From: Candidatus Woesearchaeota archaeon
Lineage (GTDB): Archaea; Nanobdellota; Nanobdellia; Woesearchaeales; JAGVZT01
Reading direction: 5' to 3'
Assembly: GCA_018263355.1 (NCBI GenBank)
Contig: JAANXH010000051.1
Coordinates: 10,897 to 74,896, forward strand
DNA length: 64,000 nucleotides
In this document: positions 3,178 through 60,835 of the stretch, in pieces
Position numbering within the stretch: position 1 is the stretch's first letter
Layout of the letters: each line of letters starts with the position of its first letter
Program-made: the position numbers and the translations under genes
The notes under the pieces: generated by a model
Databases searched by the model: none
What the model was told of the DNA's origin: nothing
What the model saw: only the letters and a program-made list of their open reading frames with translations

Positions 3178-3666
3178 ATGATCAAGAATAAAAGAGGTTT
3201 TCAACTTTCAATTAATATGATTATTATTGTAGTAATTGCTTTGGTTTTTCTTGGTGTTGTTATTGGATTGATCATGAAATCAGGAAAGATAATTGAAGAT
3301 AAGATCCCTGAACTTTTTGGTCCCGATGATGCTTTATGGAAACCTGATGCAAACAATCCTGTTTACTTAAGTCCTCCTAATTTAGAATTAGACAGGGGGG
3401 AAAATAAAAAAATTGATCTTCAGATCTTTAACTATGCTGCAAGCAATGTAACATGTAGTATTAATTTTGACTTGGATGCTGAAGAAGAATTTGTGGAATT
3501 TAGGTATTCCAAAGCGAATAGACCAATCCCTGTTGGCATGGTAGGAGGATGGACTATTGGTGTAGTTGCCCCAAAAACAACACCTTCTGATTTGTATATA
3601 TATACTGTGAATATTGAATGTGAAGAGTTTTCAAAACAATCTGATATCTTGGTTACAATAAACTAA
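3178..3666 (+). CDS. Secreted protein with class III (prepilin-like) signal peptide
   Basis: N-terminus MIKNKRGFQLSINMIIIVVIALVFLGVVIGLI: a basic KRG followed by a hydrophobic helix, the archaeal type IV pilin-like pattern. Confidence 0.45.
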   Translation: MIKNKRGFQLSINMIIIVVIALVFLGVVIGLIMKSGKIIEDKIPELFGPDDALWKPDANNPVYLSPPNLELDRGENKKIDLQIFNYAASNVTCSINFDLDAEEEFVEFRYSKANRPIPVGMVGGWTIGVVAPKTTPSDLYIYTVNIECEEFSKQSDILVTIN

Positions 3667-4117: not shown

Positions 4118-4567
4118 TTATGTTTTAGTCATATTATGGTATTTCATAACTGTTTTTGCTATTGCCTGATTGCATTGTGCAATTCTTGCCTGTAAATCTT
4201 GTGCATGTATTTCAAATCTTTTTCTTCTAGCTCTAACACCAAAACCTTCATAAAGAGAACCATTCTCTAGCTCCCAGTCTTTTTGTCCTTTTGCTGAAGA
4301 TAAATAACTGTATTCTTGATAAGCATAATCTAACAAATCAACTACATGACCAATTGTAAATAGGTCTTTTTCAACTGTCACTGTTTCTTTTAATGGTACT
4401 AAAACATTAGCATCAGTTTCAGCTGCACAAAAATAATCTATTGATAAATACTCTCCTCTCTGTCTGATTTCTCCTATCCCAAGTTCCTTGACTTTTTCAA
4501 TTTTATTTGAAATTTTAATCACCTTTATTATAACAAAAACCGTTGTGGGGAGCCAGACTCGCGCCAT
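4118..4567 (-). CDS. Hypothetical protein
   Basis: 149-aa ORF. The GC-rich 5' end makes the annotated start uncertain; an internal GTG start is possible. No motif recognised. Confidence 0.3.
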   Translation of the reverse strand: MARVWLPTTVFVIIKVIKISNKIEKVKELGIGEIRQRGEYLSIDYFCAAETDANVLVPLKETVTVEKDLFTIGHVVDLLDYAYQEYSYLSSAKGQKDWELENGSLYEGFGVRARRKRFEIHAQDLQARIAQCNQAIAKTVMKYHNMTKT

Positions 4568-4762
4568 TATATTGCGTTCCTAGCTTGACAAGTTAAGTAT
4601 CAATGTACTTTGAGGCTTGTCCTCAACCTCTTTAACATGTGTGATTTTCAATAATTATTACAAGATAGAAAGATTTAAAGTTAATGTTTAAAGCTTATAA
4701 GTAATTACATATATTTAAACAAATCATAGAGGATTAAATTTAACAATATATTGGAGAAACTC

Positions 4763-5077
4763 TTACTTAAACTCAACTTTTTTAGCTCTTATACCTTTCT
4801 TTTGTGTGTGACCAGTATTACAAACCCTGCAAAAGAATCTTAAATCTGTTTTTTTGGTTGATTTTTTTCCATATCTCTTCCATTTAGTCAAAGCACCTTT
4901 AGAAAGCTTACCTTGGTTTCCAAAACCAGTACCTTCTCCTCTTTTTTTCATTCTGTGCTTCGATCCTTTTTTAAGAGTGCTAGGTCTACCCTTTTTTGAC
5001 TGCAATACTTTGTGCTCTGTGTGTTTTTTGCACTTTGGGCAGTATTTCTTTCTAATTTTTGGAATTTTCATAAGCAA
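4763..5077 (-). CDS. rpl44e: 50S ribosomal protein L44e (eL42)
   Basis: KYCPKCKKHTEHKV ... FFCRVCNTGHTQKKG C4 zinc ribbon; lysine-rich, 104 aa. Confidence 0.85.
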   Translation of the reverse strand: MLMKIPKIRKKYCPKCKKHTEHKVLQSKKGRPSTLKKGSKHRMKKRGEGTGFGNQGKLSKGALTKWKRYGKKSTKKTDLRFFCRVCNTGHTQKKGIRAKKVEFK

Positions 5078-5089
5078 AAGTAATTAGAG

Positions 5090-5757
5090 TATATTTAAAT
5101 AACTTTTGATATAACGAAAATCTACTGTGAGGAGCAATCCCCATAATAAATTATGGGGTTTTTAACACTCCTCACTTTTACTTAGAATGCGTTGGGTCTA
5201 AATGTCAGGACTATTCGTCCTGATCATGCTCAGGAAGCTACGCTTCCCATCGGCCCCTGGCTTATCTCACTAGCGTTCCTAACACATAAATCATAGATTT
5301 CTGACATTTAACCAGTAGCATTATGATGCAGTCACTCCACACATTCGTGTTTTGTTCGGCATCCATAAGCCTCGCTTCTGGAGTCTGAAAAGCTATCGTA
5401 AGATAGCTGCCGAGTGAACAAAGTGAACGAATGCATCTGCTTGTCAAAGGGAAGAGTGCAAAAGCCCCCGCCTTTAGGCGGTGGGATTACTTTGAAGGTT
5501 AAGCCTTTTAAGTTAGGAACTGAGCAAAGCGGAGTGAGATTAGTTGCCAGAGCAACTCAGGAACAAAGCGAAGCGAAGTGAGATTAACTCTTCAAAGCAG
5601 ATTTTCTTTACATGCAGATTTTCTGACTGAAAATCACGCACTAAAGCTTTCAGCTACGCTGAAAGTTAGGAACGTAAGTGATATTATGCTGGGTATTCCC
5701 TATCCCCATCAGAAAATACCGCTTCTTGCGTGATTTTCAATAAATTCAAGAAAAAAA
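5090..5757. ncRNA. Candidate structured non-coding RNA(s); identity and strand unresolved
   Basis: About 670 bp between rpl44e and GINS with no credible ORF. GC is clearly above the flanks and hairpins are numerous (gtgaggag...ctcctcac enclosing ccccat...atgggg; ggaagcTACgcttcc; cagcTACgctg; ccgcctttaggcgg; ctgag...ctcag). A long-range 13-nt inverted repeat ctgaaaatcacgc/gcgtgattttcag spans 5628-5743. Confidence 0.3.
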
Positions 5758-6417
5758 TCAGCTTTTTATCTCTTCTGCCCGAGATTTACTAATAAGCACA
5801 TCTGCAAGCTCCACAGGAAGGTTTGCCACATCTTCTTCTTCAAATGGTCCATATACTTCAAGCTGTTTTCCAACAAATTTTGGGACTGGTTTTAAAAACC
5901 TGATCAATTTTTGAGAATTTTTAGATTTTTGTGATTTTTTAGGCTTACTTGGTTTATTTGATTGATTTTTTGGAGTTTCTGTATTTTGATTTGGTTGTAA
6001 TTTTATTTTGGGCTGTTTTGTGTTTAGTACTTTTTTTAAGATCCCTTCTCTTCCACTCTTAAGCTGCTCTACTAAACTATCAAAGAGCAATTTTTCTTGT
6101 TTAAGAAGTGCTCTTCTATCAAGCATTTCACCTGTTTTCACACTAATGATTGCCATATTCACTATTTTTTTCTCACGCTGATCATAAAGCTGCTTTACTA
6201 ATTTGAATATACTCTCAAGTTGATTTTTCGCTTTACGCTGTTCTGCATCTGCAAAAACACTTGAATCAGATTTATTAATCAATTTTTTCTTTTCAGAAAT
6301 ATATTTCACTAAGTCCTCAAAAAAAGTTTCTTCTAATCTTTGCAGCTCATTTCTGTTTTTTTCATTTCTGAGAATATCAAATAGTGTCTCATAGGTTATC
6401 TTAATTTTCTCCCCCAT
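5758..6417 (-). CDS. Probable GINS subunit (Gins51/Psf1-Sld5-like)
   Basis: N-terminal helical segment ITYETLFDILRNEKNRNELQRLEETFFEDLVKYI fits the Gins51 A-domain pattern. C-terminal KQLEVYGPFEEEDVANLPVELADVLISKSRAE resembles the B-domain. A K/Q/N-rich linker separates them. Confidence 0.4.
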   Translation of the reverse strand: MGEKIKITYETLFDILRNEKNRNELQRLEETFFEDLVKYISEKKKLINKSDSSVFADAEQRKAKNQLESIFKLVKQLYDQREKKIVNMAIISVKTGEMLDRRALLKQEKLLFDSLVEQLKSGREGILKKVLNTKQPKIKLQPNQNTETPKNQSNKPSKPKKSQKSKNSQKLIRFLKPVPKFVGKQLEVYGPFEEEDVANLPVELADVLISKSRAEEIKS

Positions 6418-10272: not shown

Positions 10273-10333
10273 ATAAACACCTCCTAAATGTTTTTTGGCT
10301 ATCATATACTGTTAGCCCTGTTAGCATTAAACC

Positions 10334-10350
10334 ATATAAAGAAAATATAA
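10334..10350 (-). promoter_or_regulatory. Candidate TATA box for the S-layer gene
   Basis: On the minus strand, a tttatat-like AT box sits about 60-75 nt upstream of the start and ahead of the GGAGGTG SD. Confidence 0.25.
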
Positions 10351-10660
10351 TCTCTTTTTACGGCTAGCCATTTACTAACAGTTAACTTCGATTACCAAAT
10401 TTTGATTTATAAATATTTCGCCGGTAAAGAATATAGAATTATGTTGTTTTTAGTCTATACCCACTCTACTAGCAGAATTCTCCATTTTAGACTGGTTGTC
10501 ACTTCACGATAGAAAACCTTGTTTTTAGCTGTATTTTTCGTGTTATTTAAAAAGCCCCATTTAATGTATGATTTAGTGTGATATATAAATATAGGATTTT
10601 ATAGAAAATAAGAAATTATTCATACTAAAAATTTAGATAAATTAAAACACTACTTAACCC

Positions 10661-10728
10661 TATAATAATATAAAATATTCTCAATAATAATATAAAATAT
10701 TCTCAATAATAATATAAAATATCTATTT
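10661..10728. repeat. Tandem direct repeat (22-nt unit taataatataaaatattctcaa, about 2.7 copies)
   Basis: Read directly from the sequence at 10661-10728, just 3' of the tRNA-Leu gene. Confidence 0.6.
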
Positions 10729-10740
10729 TAGAAAAGATGA

Positions 10741-10893
10741 TGCGGAGAGCAGGACTCGAACCTGCGAAAGCACTAAGCTAACAGGTGTCCTCAAATCAAG
10801 TTGGAACCTGACTCACCTAAGCCTGTCCCGTATGACCTAAAACCATACTTTTTATCAAGGTTTGATTTTGTTTGGCCACTCCGGCATCTCCGC
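10741..10893 (-). tRNA. tRNA-Leu (anticodon UAG inferred) with two introns (D-loop and anticodon loop)
   Basis: The reverse complement reads GCGGAGAUGCCGGAGUGGCCAAAC[about 40-nt insert]GGGACAGG CUUAGG[insert]...CCUGU, then a long variable arm, GCAGGUUCGAGUCCUGC, UCUCCGC and A. Acceptor and T-arm are canonical, with a class II long variable arm and discriminator A. Exact intron boundaries are not resolved by eye. Confidence 0.65.
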
Positions 10894-11374
10894 TTAACAA
10901 AAAGGTAACAAGAATATAATATATAAATTATTCTATTGAGAATTTTGAATGCATTCATTCAACTTTTGTTTATGCTCAATACCAGTTTCATTCGGCAGTT
11001 AAATACTTGCCTGAAGTGCAATCTAACAAACCCAATAAAATTCTCAGAGAGAACTTTGAAATCATAGCTTACCAGTACTTCAAAACACGATTTTTAATAA
11101 AAAGAAGGTATTTCAAAGTTCTCTATTACACAATTGATTTTAATTGTTTATTTAGAATGGGCAAAATCAACTACTCTGTGTTAGCTCCATAAATGCCAGA
11201 TTTGTGTGAAGGAGACAACCATTGTAAAGGTCATTGGGGAAACAGTTTGCCGTCTATTAATAGGACTTAATGCAATATCAAGGAGAGTTTAGCAAACTGG
11301 CGACTGAACCGGCAATGTGGAGCTAACCGCAATTAACTTGACTTTACCTTTAGAATGAAAGATTATCTAACATC

Positions 11375-38942: not shown

Positions 38943-39806
38943 ATGATACCTTGGTATGTATATGCAATAGGAGGTGTTTGTTTTTCAGCAGCTTTTGTAG
39001 TTTTGCGGAAAAAAGCCTTGGGTTCAGAACACTCTCTAAATTTTGAATCAACCAGATTACTAATTAATGCTCTTTTATGCTTAATATTATTCCCTTTACT
39101 TGATTTTAATTTTGACTTAAAGTTTATTTTATTAATGTATCTAAACTCTATTTTTGGTACAATAGGGATTTTGCTTGCTTCCAGAGCACTCAGACATGGT
39201 CAGATATCATTAATTACTCCTTTAGGAAATATTAAACCTGTATTTGTATCCTTGCTGGCTTTTCTTTTTTTGGGAGAATCCATAACTTTAATTCAGGGAA
39301 TGGGAATTTTGATTATACTTATTTCAATGTATCTGCTTGAATCAGACCACCATGTTTCAAATCTTGTGCATCCAATCAAAAATTTGACAAAGGATCACTA
39401 CAGCATACTGTTTATCTTGGCCTATGTGTTGTTTAGTATTGGAAATATTTTTGACAAATTTTTTGTCAGTGAAGTTAATATTTACACTTACGGAACCATA
39501 TTATGGTTCTTCTTGGCACTTAATATGAATCTATACCATGGGATAGTGCATGGATTCAAAGAAGTAATAACCTGCATGAAAAATAATAAATTGGTTTTTC
39601 TGGTTTCATTGTTTTCAATAATAAGCTGGTTTTTGGGACTTAAGGCAGTTTCAATGGCATATGTTTCATTAGTAGCACCAGTCTTGACTCTATCTTCATT
39701 ATTTGTAATAATTTTTGGGGGTAAGTTTTTTGAAGAAAAATACCTCTATTTTAGATTAGGTATGGCTTGTTTAATGATAATTGGATCATATCTGGTGATC
39801 GCATGA
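38943..39806 (+). CDS. EamA/DMT-family transporter
   Basis: 287 aa with about ten TM helices in two similar halves, typical of the DMT superfamily. Confidence 0.55.
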   Translation: MIPWYVYAIGGVCFSAAFVVLRKKALGSEHSLNFESTRLLINALLCLILFPLLDFNFDLKFILLMYLNSIFGTIGILLASRALRHGQISLITPLGNIKPVFVSLLAFLFLGESITLIQGMGILIILISMYLLESDHHVSNLVHPIKNLTKDHYSILFILAYVLFSIGNIFDKFFVSEVNIYTYGTILWFFLALNMNLYHGIVHGFKEVITCMKNNKLVFLVSLFSIISWFLGLKAVSMAYVSLVAPVLTLSSLFVIIFGGKFFEEKYLYFRLGMACLMIIGSYLVIA

Positions 39807-40729
39807 ATAAAAAAGCAATGGCTATGAGTACAATTGCATTGGCAATACTTGTTTTTATTATAGGTTTACTAATTATATTTTTTATTTCAAATTCTATGAA
39901 TGATGGAGAACAATATACAGACAGAAAATTATGCGAAAAAAGCATTGATGCAAGTTCCAATAAATTAAGAGAAGAAATGAATGGACTATTTGATCCACAT
40001 GGAAATTCAGTTAAACTGGAATGTTCTACAGAATATATTAACTACAAAGAAAAAGATCCTGAAAAGATTAAAAGAATTATTGCAAATAAAATGTATGATT
40101 GCTGGGATATGTATGGGGAAGGGGAGAAGGAAATTTTTGAAACTAAGGATGGAGCGTTTTGTGCAGTATGTTCTAGATTAACTTTTAAAAAAGAGGTTGA
40201 GGTTAATGATTTTTTATTGTATTTGAGAGATACAGATATCCCAAACAAACCAATCAAATATTGGGAGTATTTTATGGGATCAGAAGTAAAAAAATTTAGG
40301 ACAGAGTATTATGAGAATACAGAACTTGAAAAATATGATAAGTTCAGCACTTCTGAACCTATTGCTATTGTGTATTATATGAACAAAGATGCATTTCCAG
40401 GAATAACTGGGGATTTACTCGAAAATTTCCAGAGCACAAAAAAAGTTCAGGCAATTAAGGGAGGGGGAGTAGGTATAGCAACTGGGTTAGTAGGAGGTGT
40501 AATTGCTTGCGTGGCCGGTGCCCCGGTTTGTGGAGCCGCAGGTATTTTTATTGCTGCCACTACTGTGGGGGGGTTTTTAATAGGAACTGGTGGGGGCTAC
40601 ACTATAGGTTCTGACCGGAGTGCAGATTGGGATGCAAGAATTTTATTAACAGGATATGAAAATTTAGATAAGTTAGAATGCACAAGATTAGAATCTAAAT
40701 CAACACCCTTAGACGTTATCCAAAAATAA
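39803..40729 (+). CDS. Pilin-like protein with C-terminal glycine-zipper TM segment
   Basis: Start moved to MNKKAMAMSTIALAILVFIIGLLIIFFI (ATGA overlap with the EamA stop). The C-terminal GGGVGIATGLVGGVIACVAGAPVCGAAGIFIAATTVGGFLIGTGGG is a Gly-zipper. Confidence 0.4.
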   Translation: MNKKAMAMSTIALAILVFIIGLLIIFFISNSMNDGEQYTDRKLCEKSIDASSNKLREEMNGLFDPHGNSVKLECSTEYINYKEKDPEKIKRIIANKMYDCWDMYGEGEKEIFETKDGAFCAVCSRLTFKKEVEVNDFLLYLRDTDIPNKPIKYWEYFMGSEVKKFRTEYYENTELEKYDKFSTSEPIAIVYYMNKDAFPGITGDLLENFQSTKKVQAIKGGGVGIATGLVGGVIACVAGAPVCGAAGIFIAATTVGGFLIGTGGGYTIGSDRSADWDARILLTGYENLDKLECTRLESKSTPLDVIQK

Positions 40730-46974: not shown

Positions 46975-47126
46975 AAATCTCACTGGACATTTGCACGTAA
47001 GCTATTTAAATCAGTTAGAGATTATATTCCTTAAGGCAAAAAGCCTAACCAATCTGTCCCTGGGGCTCAGACACCTGATGCCCATAATATAAGGGGATTG
47101 AAATAAAAAGCGATAAGCAAGGAGGG

Positions 47127-47393
47127 TTGGTAAATATGGAAGAAAAAAACATACCTGAAAAAAGGTTTTCAACAGGTGTAATAAATGCAACTGTTTGGAA
47201 AAATACAGCAACAAAAAAATCTGGAGAAACTGCTGAATATAATACAGTTTCTTTGCAAAGACGTTACCAGGACAAAGAGGGGAATTGGCAGTCCACTAAT
47301 TCTTTGAGAATTAATGACTTACCTAAGGCAGCACTAGTGTTAAATAAAGCCTATGAGTACATTGTTCTTAGAGATACTGAAAGTAAGGACTAA
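47127..47393 (+). CDS. PC4-like ssDNA-binding protein (tentative)
   Basis: VSLQRRYQDKEGNWQSTNSLRINDLPKAALVLNKAYEYI resembles the PC4/YdbC fold pattern; 88 aa; GGAGG SD upstream. Confidence 0.4.
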   Translation: MVNMEEKNIPEKRFSTGVINATVWKNTATKKSGETAEYNTVSLQRRYQDKEGNWQSTNSLRINDLPKAALVLNKAYEYIVLRDTESKD

Positions 47394-47484
47394 AAGCCCA
47401 ATTTTTTTTATTTTTTTATTTTTCCGGTAAATTATGAGTAAAGATAATAAATAGATAAATAAAAATAACATAAAAGGTGATTAA

Positions 47485-50920: not shown

Positions 50921-51225
50921 AATAGAGTGGCACTCAACTTTCGCAAACAGTTAAATTGTTTGTGAGGAAAGTCCACCCACTATAAAGGTCACTCCTTTTA
51001 GGAGTTTTGTAATGGAAGGCAACCACTCAGAAACGATACAGCCTTAATTCAGAATGACGCAGCAAACAGATTTGGTGACAAAGCTGGAATCTGCAGACAG
51101 TTTTTAAGGAATTGGTGAAACGGTGAGCCCTGACCAGTGCAAGCATATGCGCTAAGTTGAATGTTGAGGAAAACCTTTCCTTTAAATAGGAGGTTTTACA
51201 AAAGGTGGCTTATAGCCACTCTATT
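50921..51225 (+). ncRNA. rnpB: RNase P RNA
   Basis: CR-I motif GAGGAAAGUCCACCC at about 50975. GGUGAAACGGUGAGCCC and ACAGAAACGAUACAGCC conserved-region-like segments. Terminal P1 pairing UAGAGUGGC (50923-) with GCCACUCUA (-51223). About 305 nt, ORF-free and GC-elevated. Confidence 0.75.
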
Positions 51226-55590: not shown

Positions 55591-55775
55591 GCGGGGGTGT
55601 CGGAGCCTGGTCAATTTAAAACAAAAAAATTGTTTTAAGATGAAACGACTACGGTTGAGGGCCGTAGGCCTTAGTGGCTGCGCGGGTTCAAAGTTTGCTG
55701 GCTATTGACTGTTAGTCTTTAGCTGTTGGCAACTAATAGCAAAGAGCCAATAAATAGAAAGTCCCGTCCTCCGCA
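55591..55775 (+). tRNA. tRNA-Leu (anticodon GAG inferred) with multiple introns (D-loop, T-loop; possibly more)
   Basis: Acceptor GCGGGGG / CCUCCGC with discriminator A. D-arm UCGG-AGCCUGGUCAA interrupted by a roughly 25-nt hairpin insert. Anticodon arm CUACGG-UUGAGGG-CCGUAG. Long variable arm GCCUUAGUGGC. T-stem GCGGG-UUCAAAG, then a roughly 65-nt insert before CCCGU. Total 185 nt. Confidence 0.6.
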
Positions 55776-60110: not shown

Positions 60111-60835
60111 ATTAGCTAAAAAAATGTAGAATAAAGAGTAAGCACGCTTGAGAATGGAAAACCAATCAAAAAGTTGGCTACCTTAGTTCTTTCTTGGTTC
60201 TGCAACCCCATTAGCACCTGTGAATATAATTAATGCTGCTTCATTCCTGACCTGACATGGTTCTTACAAACAAAAGTCCAACAGGACAGAACTTCATTGT
60301 CCAAACCAAGACCAACAACTTGAAAAGATACCTCTTCTCAAGCTTCGGTTCCATCGTGAAGCCGATTTATGGTAACAAGAGACGGCTAACCCCCCAACCT
60401 AGCTTACAATAGTACATTAATCAAAATATTCTTTTAAATCTTTCTAAAAAGCGGCAATGTCAAGTTAACAAACTGGTCAGGTTACATGGGGCACCCCCTC
60501 CATGTTACCGTCGACAAGATTTGCATACTCAAATGCTTGTCATTATGACGGGTGACACTTGTCCCCTTAACTTTACAATGTCAAAAAAAGGGTTAAGTCA
60601 ACTTAATAGTGGTTAGCCCCATAATACCGGTTCAGTCGTCAGTTTGCTAAACCATTATTCATATTGTATTGAGTCTTATTTGATACAATCATTCCATTGG
60701 TGTGCTTTGAATCACTTCACTCTGTTTCGCACAAAACTTGCAAGATCCTTGCAAGCACCAGAGGTTCACAGAGTAGTTGACTTTGCCCAAAAAAAGCAAA
60801 GTATATAAAGCATTCCAGACTAATTATTTAATAAT

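Follow-up and report, generated by a model that had tools for sequence, protein, structure and literature searches.

Among described systems, the closest to the locus analysed here are the Hgc RNAs. These are GC-rich RNAs of AT-rich archaea that are reportedly expressed, and several of them are said to be conserved between species. Our locus shares with them the character of an ORF-free island of raised GC content in an AT-rich archaeal genome, together with a stable predicted structure. However, it differs from the Hgc RNAs in having no homologue, in its greater length (~600 nt) and in showing no consistent strand signal, and it is known from sequence alone. Archaeal MITEs and IS200/IS605-derived PATEs offer another point of comparison, since they too are short, hairpin-rich, non-coding inserts that occur in one lineage and are absent at the syntenic site of relatives. 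The locus further resembles these elements in being apparently polymorphic or repeated in its community, although it has no clear terminal repeats, no target duplication and no second copy in 64 kb. No transposase or TnpB was seen nearby, and there is no match to a transposon-associated RNA family in Rfam.

Two further groups are similar in more limited respects. The OLE, GOLLD, ROOL and HEARO RNAs have the same size class (~0.6 kb) and many hairpins, but they are defined by wide conservation and covariation, whereas the insert described here is a single sequence and matches none of their Rfam models even at E ≤ 10. Archaeal oriC regions with ORB repeats likewise present a long spacer beside a replication gene and a composite repeat in both orientations. 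In contrast to such origins, our locus has no AT-rich unwinding element, no orc1/cdc6 neighbour, no skew switch and no positional conservation.

Genomic context of the candidate region

The window, by which we mean the whole 64-kb stretch of DNA that was analysed, derives from a Candidatus Woesearchaeota MAG and has a GC content of 31.9%. The flagged region (5078-5757) is flanked by two genes on the − strand, which encode Gins51 and ribosomal protein L44e. The Gins51 protein is identical to NCBI MAG795_00969, which is encoded on a 140-kb contig. The main features of this setting are as follows.

4763-5071, − strand: gene for ribosomal protein L44e (PF00935)
5078-5113, − strand: native L44e promoter, outside the insert, with TATA box TTTAAATA at 5095-5102
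5114-5745, limits approximate: lineage-specific non-coding insert of ~630 nt, delimited by the spacer of a relative, GC content and lack of periodicity
5751-5757, − strand: T7 tract directly 3′ of the Gins51 stop codon
5758-6417, − strand: gene for Gins51 (Pfam PF22090, E 1.9e-16)

Oligo-T is a transcription termination signal in archaea, and the T7 tract is likely the terminator of Gins51. With a terminator at this position, the insert would be a separate unit. On the other side, the near-palindromic TATA box of L44e scores on both strands (11.2 on − and 9.7 on +) with a promoter PWM derived from 19 window genes. The signals on either side of the insert, namely the T7 tract of Gins51 and the ancestral TATA box of L44e, are both intact.

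An insertion at a recurrent site

In the closest relative, whose Gins51 protein is 68% identical, the spacer between Gins51 and L44e measures only 56 nt. The gene order common to the two genomes comprises genes for an S-layer protein, a radical SAM protein, Gins51, L44e, a 110-aa protein and a phosphoribosyltransferase. Only the promoter-proximal part of the region (window 5113 to 5078, − strand) can be aligned to the relative's spacer, and over these positions the relative (L004) carries the same L44e promoter stretch, 'tatatcaaaagttatttaaatat'. Because the 56-nt spacer contains this same promoter, the ~630 nt at roughly 5114-5745 represent an insertion that kept the native promoter in place. 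The insert is also absent from two further close relatives.

More broadly, 47 of 80 Woesearchaeota loci have L44e after Gins51 in the same orientation, usually across a spacer of 35-130 nt. This broadly conserved adjacency, with its recurrent insertions, and a two-intron tRNA-Leu of the window (below) are by-products of the analysis that are more solid than the RNA reading itself. In 12 loci with wider Gins51-L44e gaps, every gap has stop-free frames (35-655 codons), and its GC content either lies below that of its own locus or differs from it by a few points. The extra ORFs at this junction in 12 other lineages indicate a recurrent insertion site. Among the Woesearchaeota loci compared, only the insert described here is both ORF-free and raised in GC content.

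Sequence similar to the region was found by neither blastn nor nhmmer in the 80 Woesearchaeota Gins51 loci. Degenerate-seed searches with the ORF-like translations of three parts of the region yielded no confirmed match in GTDB genomes, JGI metagenomes or IMG/VR, and exact 20-21-mers of the region do not occur in IMG/VR. A pattern search for the repeated module described below gave 12 chance matches in IMG/VR, none of which could be extended by nhmmer or blastn. The region has no blastn match among phages, plasmids or E. coli genomes, vector sequence gave the same result, and there is no second copy within the 64-kb window. The original prediction had named conservation in relatives as a test of its proposal, and on this point it fared poorly: no homologue appeared in the syntenic relatives, the 80 loci or the collections searched. 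By these comparisons, the insert is lineage-specific and found in this one genome.

Coding potential and nucleotide composition

The longest ORFs in 5078-5757 encode 61, 55 and 51 aa and begin with TTG or GTG. GC content is flat over codon positions in all six frames of the region (0.40-0.45), compared with a GC3 of 0.17-0.29 for the real genes of the window. With no ORF above 61 aa and no codon periodicity, the original judgement that the region holds no credible ORF is borne out. The six-frame translations match nothing in Pfam at E ≤ 1, and a concatenated six-frame query gave no match at E ≤ 10 among 5.8 billion proteins. None of 10 possible ORF products is on record by exact look-up. Searches of the region for tRNA or tmRNA genes and for tandem repeats were likewise negative.

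The GC content of the region reaches 0.45-0.465 in 200-nt windows, compared with 0.319 for the whole window, and amounts to 0.43 for 5125-5745 and 0.444 for 5155-5659. The elevated local GC content noted originally is therefore real (43-44% versus 32% for the genome). Known RNAs of the window have similar values, namely 0.415 for RNase P RNA, 0.423 for SRP RNA and 0.465 for an intron-bearing tRNA-Leu, and ordinary spacers range from 0.24 to 0.33. The other four GC-raised, ORF-free gaps of at least 180 nt in the window all contain RNA genes, such that an Hgc-like GC-island signature marks the RNase P RNA, the SRP RNA and two tRNAs. In all four known RNAs of the window, G exceeds C on the sense strand. 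In the insert, G outnumbers C on the − strand between 5128 and 5400, then on the + strand from 5400 to 5600, the skew flipping at ~5400, and local fold energies prefer the same strands. The stretch 5400-5600 read on the + strand has a purine fraction of 0.617 and a GC skew of +0.226.

Several other compositional features of the window were recorded. Its highest GC peak (0.515, at 40339-40709) is coding rather than RNA, and corresponds to a Gly/Ala-rich membrane segment of a 320-aa ORF (39767-40729, +). Further long stretches lacking ORFs of 90 aa or more (10306-11374, 46975-47484 and 60410-60835) have background GC content. The 425 nt adjoining the SRP RNA gene fold somewhat better than shuffled sequences (z −3.9 and −2.5). 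The cumulative GC-skew minimum near 26-28 kb could mark an origin or a terminus, or only a switch in gene orientation.

Predicted secondary structure

Folding of the region, a check proposed with the original prediction, gave structures far more stable than dinucleotide-shuffled sequences, with MFE z scores of −6.9 on the + strand and −8.4 on the − strand and none of 20 shuffles as stable. When folded separately, the halves of the region have z scores of −3.9 and −4.5, and the strongest local signal comes from 5060-5260 and 5620-5739. The energy of ~−0.325 kcal/nt falls among the values for the sense strands of RNase P RNA, SRP RNA and tRNA (−0.29 to −0.35 kcal/nt), compared with −0.16 to −0.28 kcal/nt for control gaps and coding DNA. 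The region thus combines a fold more stable than its composition accounts for with no coding potential, which together form one of the generic marks of a structured ncRNA.

Nearly all of the hairpins and repeats listed originally are present in the sequence. The structural elements found are as follows.

5128-5178: nested hairpin H1 (local z −5.0 to −5.8)
5128-5135 and 5171-5178: outer stem of H1, GTGAGGAG/CTCCTCAC, 8 bp
within 5128-5178: inner stem of H1, CCCCATAAT/ATTATGGGG, 9 bp, then T5 on the + strand
5199-5208 and 5301-5310: perfect 10-bp inverted repeat closing a domain that contains hairpins at 5205-5223 and 5233-5247
5233-5247: hairpin GGAAGC-TAC-GCTTCC
5391-5408, + strand: 7-bp hairpin AGCTATC-GTAA-GATAGCT
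5465-5485: GC-rich hairpin CCC-CCGCC-TTTA-GGCGG-t-GGG, with the core CCGCC-TTTA-GGCGG at 5468-5481
5520-5560: hairpin CTGAG...TTGC-CAGA-GCAA-CTCAG
5628-5640 and 5727-5739: perfect 13-bp inverted repeat closing the right-hand domain (local z −5.6 and −4.9)
5647-5665: 8-bp hairpin with arms at 5647-5654 and 5658-5665, containing CAGC-TAC-GCTG

H1, a candidate terminator or insulator, adjoins the L44e promoter. The GTAA loop of the hairpin at 5391-5408 is a GNRA tetraloop only when read on the + strand. The right-hand domain (5628-5739) contains the hairpin at 5647-5665 and one copy of the repeated module (M3, below). Its 13-nt inverted repeat is real and perfect, and reads TGAAAATCACGCA (5628-5640) and TGCGTGATTTTCA (5727-5739); the version given originally is one base out of register, and its final letter is incorrect.

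Comparison of the two strands gives a different picture from that of known RNAs. The MFE of the region is equal on both strands (−201.8 versus −202.4), whereas the sense strands of the RNase P RNA (−87.8 versus −77.0) and the SRP RNA (−85.5 versus −62.0) are favoured by 11-23 kcal/mol. Nearly all helices of the insert are Watson-Crick, as expected for inverted repeats that exist at the DNA level. For the region as a whole, there is no strand asymmetry of the kind given by G-U pairs and an excess of G over C on a sense strand.

Repeated sequence modules

The motif GTTAGGAAC was originally seen three times, once inverted, and indeed occurs exactly three times in 64 kb, always within the region. 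The repeats are larger than was first recognized, in that the motif belongs to a composite module, GTTAGGAAC-N(4-13)-GTGAGAT(T/A)A, present in four copies. At the RNA level, this module would read GUUAGGAAC...GUGAGAUUA, or GUUAGGAAC-N(4-13)-GUGAGAU(U/A)A. The repeats are located as follows.

5259-5285, − strand: module M4, inverted, GTGTTAGGAAC-GCTA-GTGAGATAA as read on the − strand
5510-5542 and 5554-5586, + strand: modules M1 and M2, 33-nt units that are 82% alike and 44 nt apart
5597-5624: direct repeat GCAGATTTTCT, two copies 17 nt apart
5663-5690, + strand: module M3, in the right-hand domain

M1 and M2 flank the hairpin at 5520-5560 in a purine-rich stretch. The direct repeat GCAGATTTTCT belongs to a cluster of GAAAATC heptamers, of which five of the window's 31 fall in the region, although it makes up 1% of the window.

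Comparison with known RNA families

The Rfam comparison suggested with the original prediction was carried out with Rfam 15, whose families include SRP, RNase P, group I and II introns, C/D and H/ACA sRNAs, OLE, GOLLD, ROOL and HEARO, and ribozymes. No family, including the group I and II introns, was assigned to the region: there is no gathering-level match in 4700-6100, and nothing relevant in the region at E ≤ 10 or in the window at E ≤ 0.5. The best sub-threshold matches overlapping the region score 13.6-17.5 bits against thresholds of 51-92.6 (E 2.8-8.9). The statements that the region is not the SRP RNA and that RNase P RNA lies elsewhere both proved correct, the two genes having been located outside the region.

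50923-51223: RNase P RNA
60136-60409: SRP RNA

Genes for tRNA-Trp and tRNA-Leu are also found elsewhere in the window. The earlier idea of an intron-like element finds no support: no gene is split by the region, and none of the intron models matches it. Inspection by eye for a C/D-box sRNA, group II intron ends and 5S fragments revealed no convincing boxes.

Two unusual tRNA-related loci were observed in passing. The tRNA-Leu(GAG) gene at 55591-55775 (+) carries two non-canonical inserts, one in the D-loop (~25 nt) and one in the T-loop (~68 nt). It is missed by ARAGORN and Rfam, and ARAGORN calls a tRNA-Leu once both inserts are cut out (986 boundary combinations). The other is a 480-nt ORF-free spacer in assembly GCA_964419615.1 (locus L095, 6700-7190; CAYQPU010000013.1) with a repeated AATAGCCCTGCCAGG motif and tRNA-like fragments, which may be another intron-bearing or split tRNA locus.

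Contig breaks in the source samples

Logan assemblies of the source runs (SRR10589499-SRR10589508) include contigs whose flanks are identical to the window. These contigs end at the same two points within the insert.

5154/5155: left break point, with L44e-bearing Logan contigs from five runs all stopping at 5154
5659/5660: right break point, with Gins51-bearing Logan contigs (L001 and L003) stopping at 5660

The L003 contig was found in 5 samples. Since the region has no internal repeat long enough to break a k=31 graph, the graph presumably branches because sequences in the community share the outer 30 nt and differ inside. This would mean that the core of the insert is variable or repeated in the source community. 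The breaks fit strain alleles that differ in, or lack, 5155-5659, and they also fit a ~565-nt unit (5125-5689, allowing for the k−1 = 30 nt overlap) that occurs in more than one context. An RNA gene accounts for the contig ends at 5154 and 5660 no better than a variable or repeated element does. Both break points lie inside hairpins (the outer stem of H1 and the hairpin at 5647-5665) whose partner arms are across the break, and these spanning arms argue that the MAG sequence is continuous rather than chimeric.

Alternative explanations

The insert could be a silent relic of mobile or foreign DNA, either a non-autonomous MITE-like or PATE-like element or a piece of the control region of a virus or plasmid, with hairpins and repeats that act as protein-binding or recombination sites in DNA and have no RNA function in the host. 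We regard this, the main rival of our preferred reading, as possible but somewhat doubtful. Such an origin agrees with insertion into a spacer of 35-130 nt in most Woesearchaeota, at a junction that has received extra ORFs in 12 other lineages, and with a composition foreign to the host. It also agrees with the equal fold energy of the two strands and their almost purely Watson-Crick stems, with motifs in both orientations (four copies of GTTAGGAAC...GTGAGATWA and five of GAAAATC), and with contigs of several runs that break at the same two points, as would be the case for a polymorphic or multi-copy core or 565-nt unit. Presence/absence polymorphism at a syntenic site, by which MITEs are recognized, is seen in the 56-nt spacer of the relative and the breaks at 5154 and 5660. 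However, no target-site duplication is seen, no transposase or integrase gene is among the neighbouring genes, and there is no second copy in the 64-kb window and no match in the phage, plasmid, IMG/VR, JGI metagenome or GTDB genome collections. The terminal inverted repeat that was found (ATATAACGAAAATC at 5109-5122 and GATTTTCAATAAAT at 5732-5745; 14 nt, 79%) would agree with such an element, but it is weak rather than clear, and positions 5109-5122 are partly ancestral promoter sequence. Drift in a genome of 32% GC should erode both the GC content and the hairpins of a silent relic, yet the stems are intact.

Other explanations leave more of the observations unaccounted for. The protein-coding ORFs of 12 other Woesearchaeota lineages at this junction raise the prospect of a decayed gene that once lay between Gins51 and L44e, but this is very improbable given that no frame retains codon periodicity and that the six frames match nothing in Pfam (E ≤ 1) or among 5.8 billion proteins (E ≤ 10). 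The GC content is above background, whereas the genes inserted in other lineages stay near that of their own locus, and this much secondary structure is not expected of a pseudogene. Both a closer relative with an intact ORF aligning at the site and a frameshift-tolerant alignment to a protein family were sought, and neither was found. We assign a slightly lower likelihood still to control DNA bound by protein, for example an origin of replication or a partition site, with the 23-33-bp modules as origin recognition boxes or iterons. The length of the intergenic region, its position beside the replication gene gins51, the four composite repeats (one inverted) containing GGAAC and the clustered GAAAATC motifs could be read in this way, and the modules bear a resemblance to ORB sequences that we take to be weak. 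Yet the region is GC-rich throughout, with no AT-rich unwinding stretch, the relatives lack it at this site, no orc1/cdc6 gene is adjacent, and the low point of the window's cumulative GC skew is at ~26-28 kb and not at 5.4 kb. The least probable explanation is an assembly chimera in which the MAG contig bridges two real contig ends via unrelated DNA. Independent Logan assemblies do stop at 5154 and 5660, and the core differs from its flanks in GC content, but each break point is within a hairpin with arms on either side, and the region does not match E. coli, plasmid/vector or phage DNA.

A proposed structured RNA model for the insert

Our preferred, though tentative, reading is that this accessory and probably mobile-element-derived insert encodes one or more structured RNAs and is not silent DNA, for which we estimate a probability of about 40%. 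It is favoured by the RNA-like GC content, by the finding that the other GC-raised gaps are RNA genes, by the stable fold, by the negative results for coding signal and protein relatives, by the strand signals and candidate promoters, and by the intact flanking signals. Against it stand the negative homologue searches, which leave no sign of selection on the structure, the equal fold energies of the two strands, the weakness of the promoters and the contig breaks. As regards the structured RNA originally proposed, the non-coding character, self-complementarity and RNA-like GC content and energy hold up, but conservation and strand asymmetry do not. On sequence evidence, a new RNA gene and a mobile-DNA relic are both plausible readings. 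The feature is real and unusual for this genome. Given that a single orphan sequence without a family cannot be called a new RNA class, we would place the locus with other unvalidated non-coding GC islands of AT-rich archaeal genomes.

One long RNA is disfavoured by the equal energy on both strands, the Watson-Crick helices and the split in skew and local energy. The original prediction had also raised the possibility of two adjacent small RNAs. The skew flip and the strand symmetry are more compatible with two or more units, or with a DNA-level element, than with one RNA of 670 nt. Two divergent units are the most economical model. The insert, which probably arrived with, or is a remnant of, a small mobile or foreign element, would be transcribed separately, as one unit or as several. 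Judging by composition and local fold energies, a left unit would be read on the − strand, from ~5400 or 5260 to H1 at 5128, and a middle/right unit on the + strand, from ~5400 to 5740. In this divergent arrangement, all four modules would be sense-oriented, and they might serve as repeated binding sites for one putative protein or RNA partner. The − strand RNA would terminate at H1, just short of the L44e promoter, and H1 might also block divergent transcripts from the symmetric TATA box.

Promoter signals within the insert were assessed with the same PWM from 19 window genes, which revealed no strong internal promoter. A weak promoter-like site is located on the − strand at 5290 (score 6.6), and the + strand TATA reading at 5094-5102 (9.7) would put a start at the base of H1. 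Because T5 runs also occur inside the RNase P and SRP RNAs, the T5 run in H1 is compatible with transcription of the + strand.

A further step would be to regard the insert as encoding a structured RNA of a type not seen before, either large (~0.6 kb) or made up of several parts, in a DPANN archaeon, carried by a polymorphic accessory element and using its four sense modules as binding sites; we consider this unlikely. Should transcription and function be borne out, the insert would provide a rare case of a large structured RNA confined to one lineage of the little-studied DPANN archaea, and the signature of a GC island in an AT-rich genome would still be finding unknown RNAs in this group. 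The practical value at present is that of a flagged locus for those who hold the reads or RNA of these samples.

Other lineage-specific features of the neighbourhood

The neighbourhood has gained several lineage-specific pieces besides the non-coding insert. Two small genes of unknown function, encoding 162 aa (window 3178-3666, +) and 220 aa (L008, 3456-4118), are absent from the syntenic block of the relative with 68% identity. A 149-aa orphan ORF (4118-4567, −) lies between L44e and the 110-aa gene in this genome only. This ORF was evaluated as a possible partner of the insert, and PADLOC returned nothing, Pfam gave no significant match and the PHROGs match was non-significant (E 0.18). Its single real homologue (P0121, 52% identity) is on a different contig of the related assembly GCA_964419615.1, and no similar DNA lies close to this homologue. 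Upstream of the 149-aa ORF, positions 4641-4654 share the 14-mer TTATTGAAAATCAC with 5730-5743, and a GCTAGGAAC motif is also present there; neither occurrence is beyond chance.
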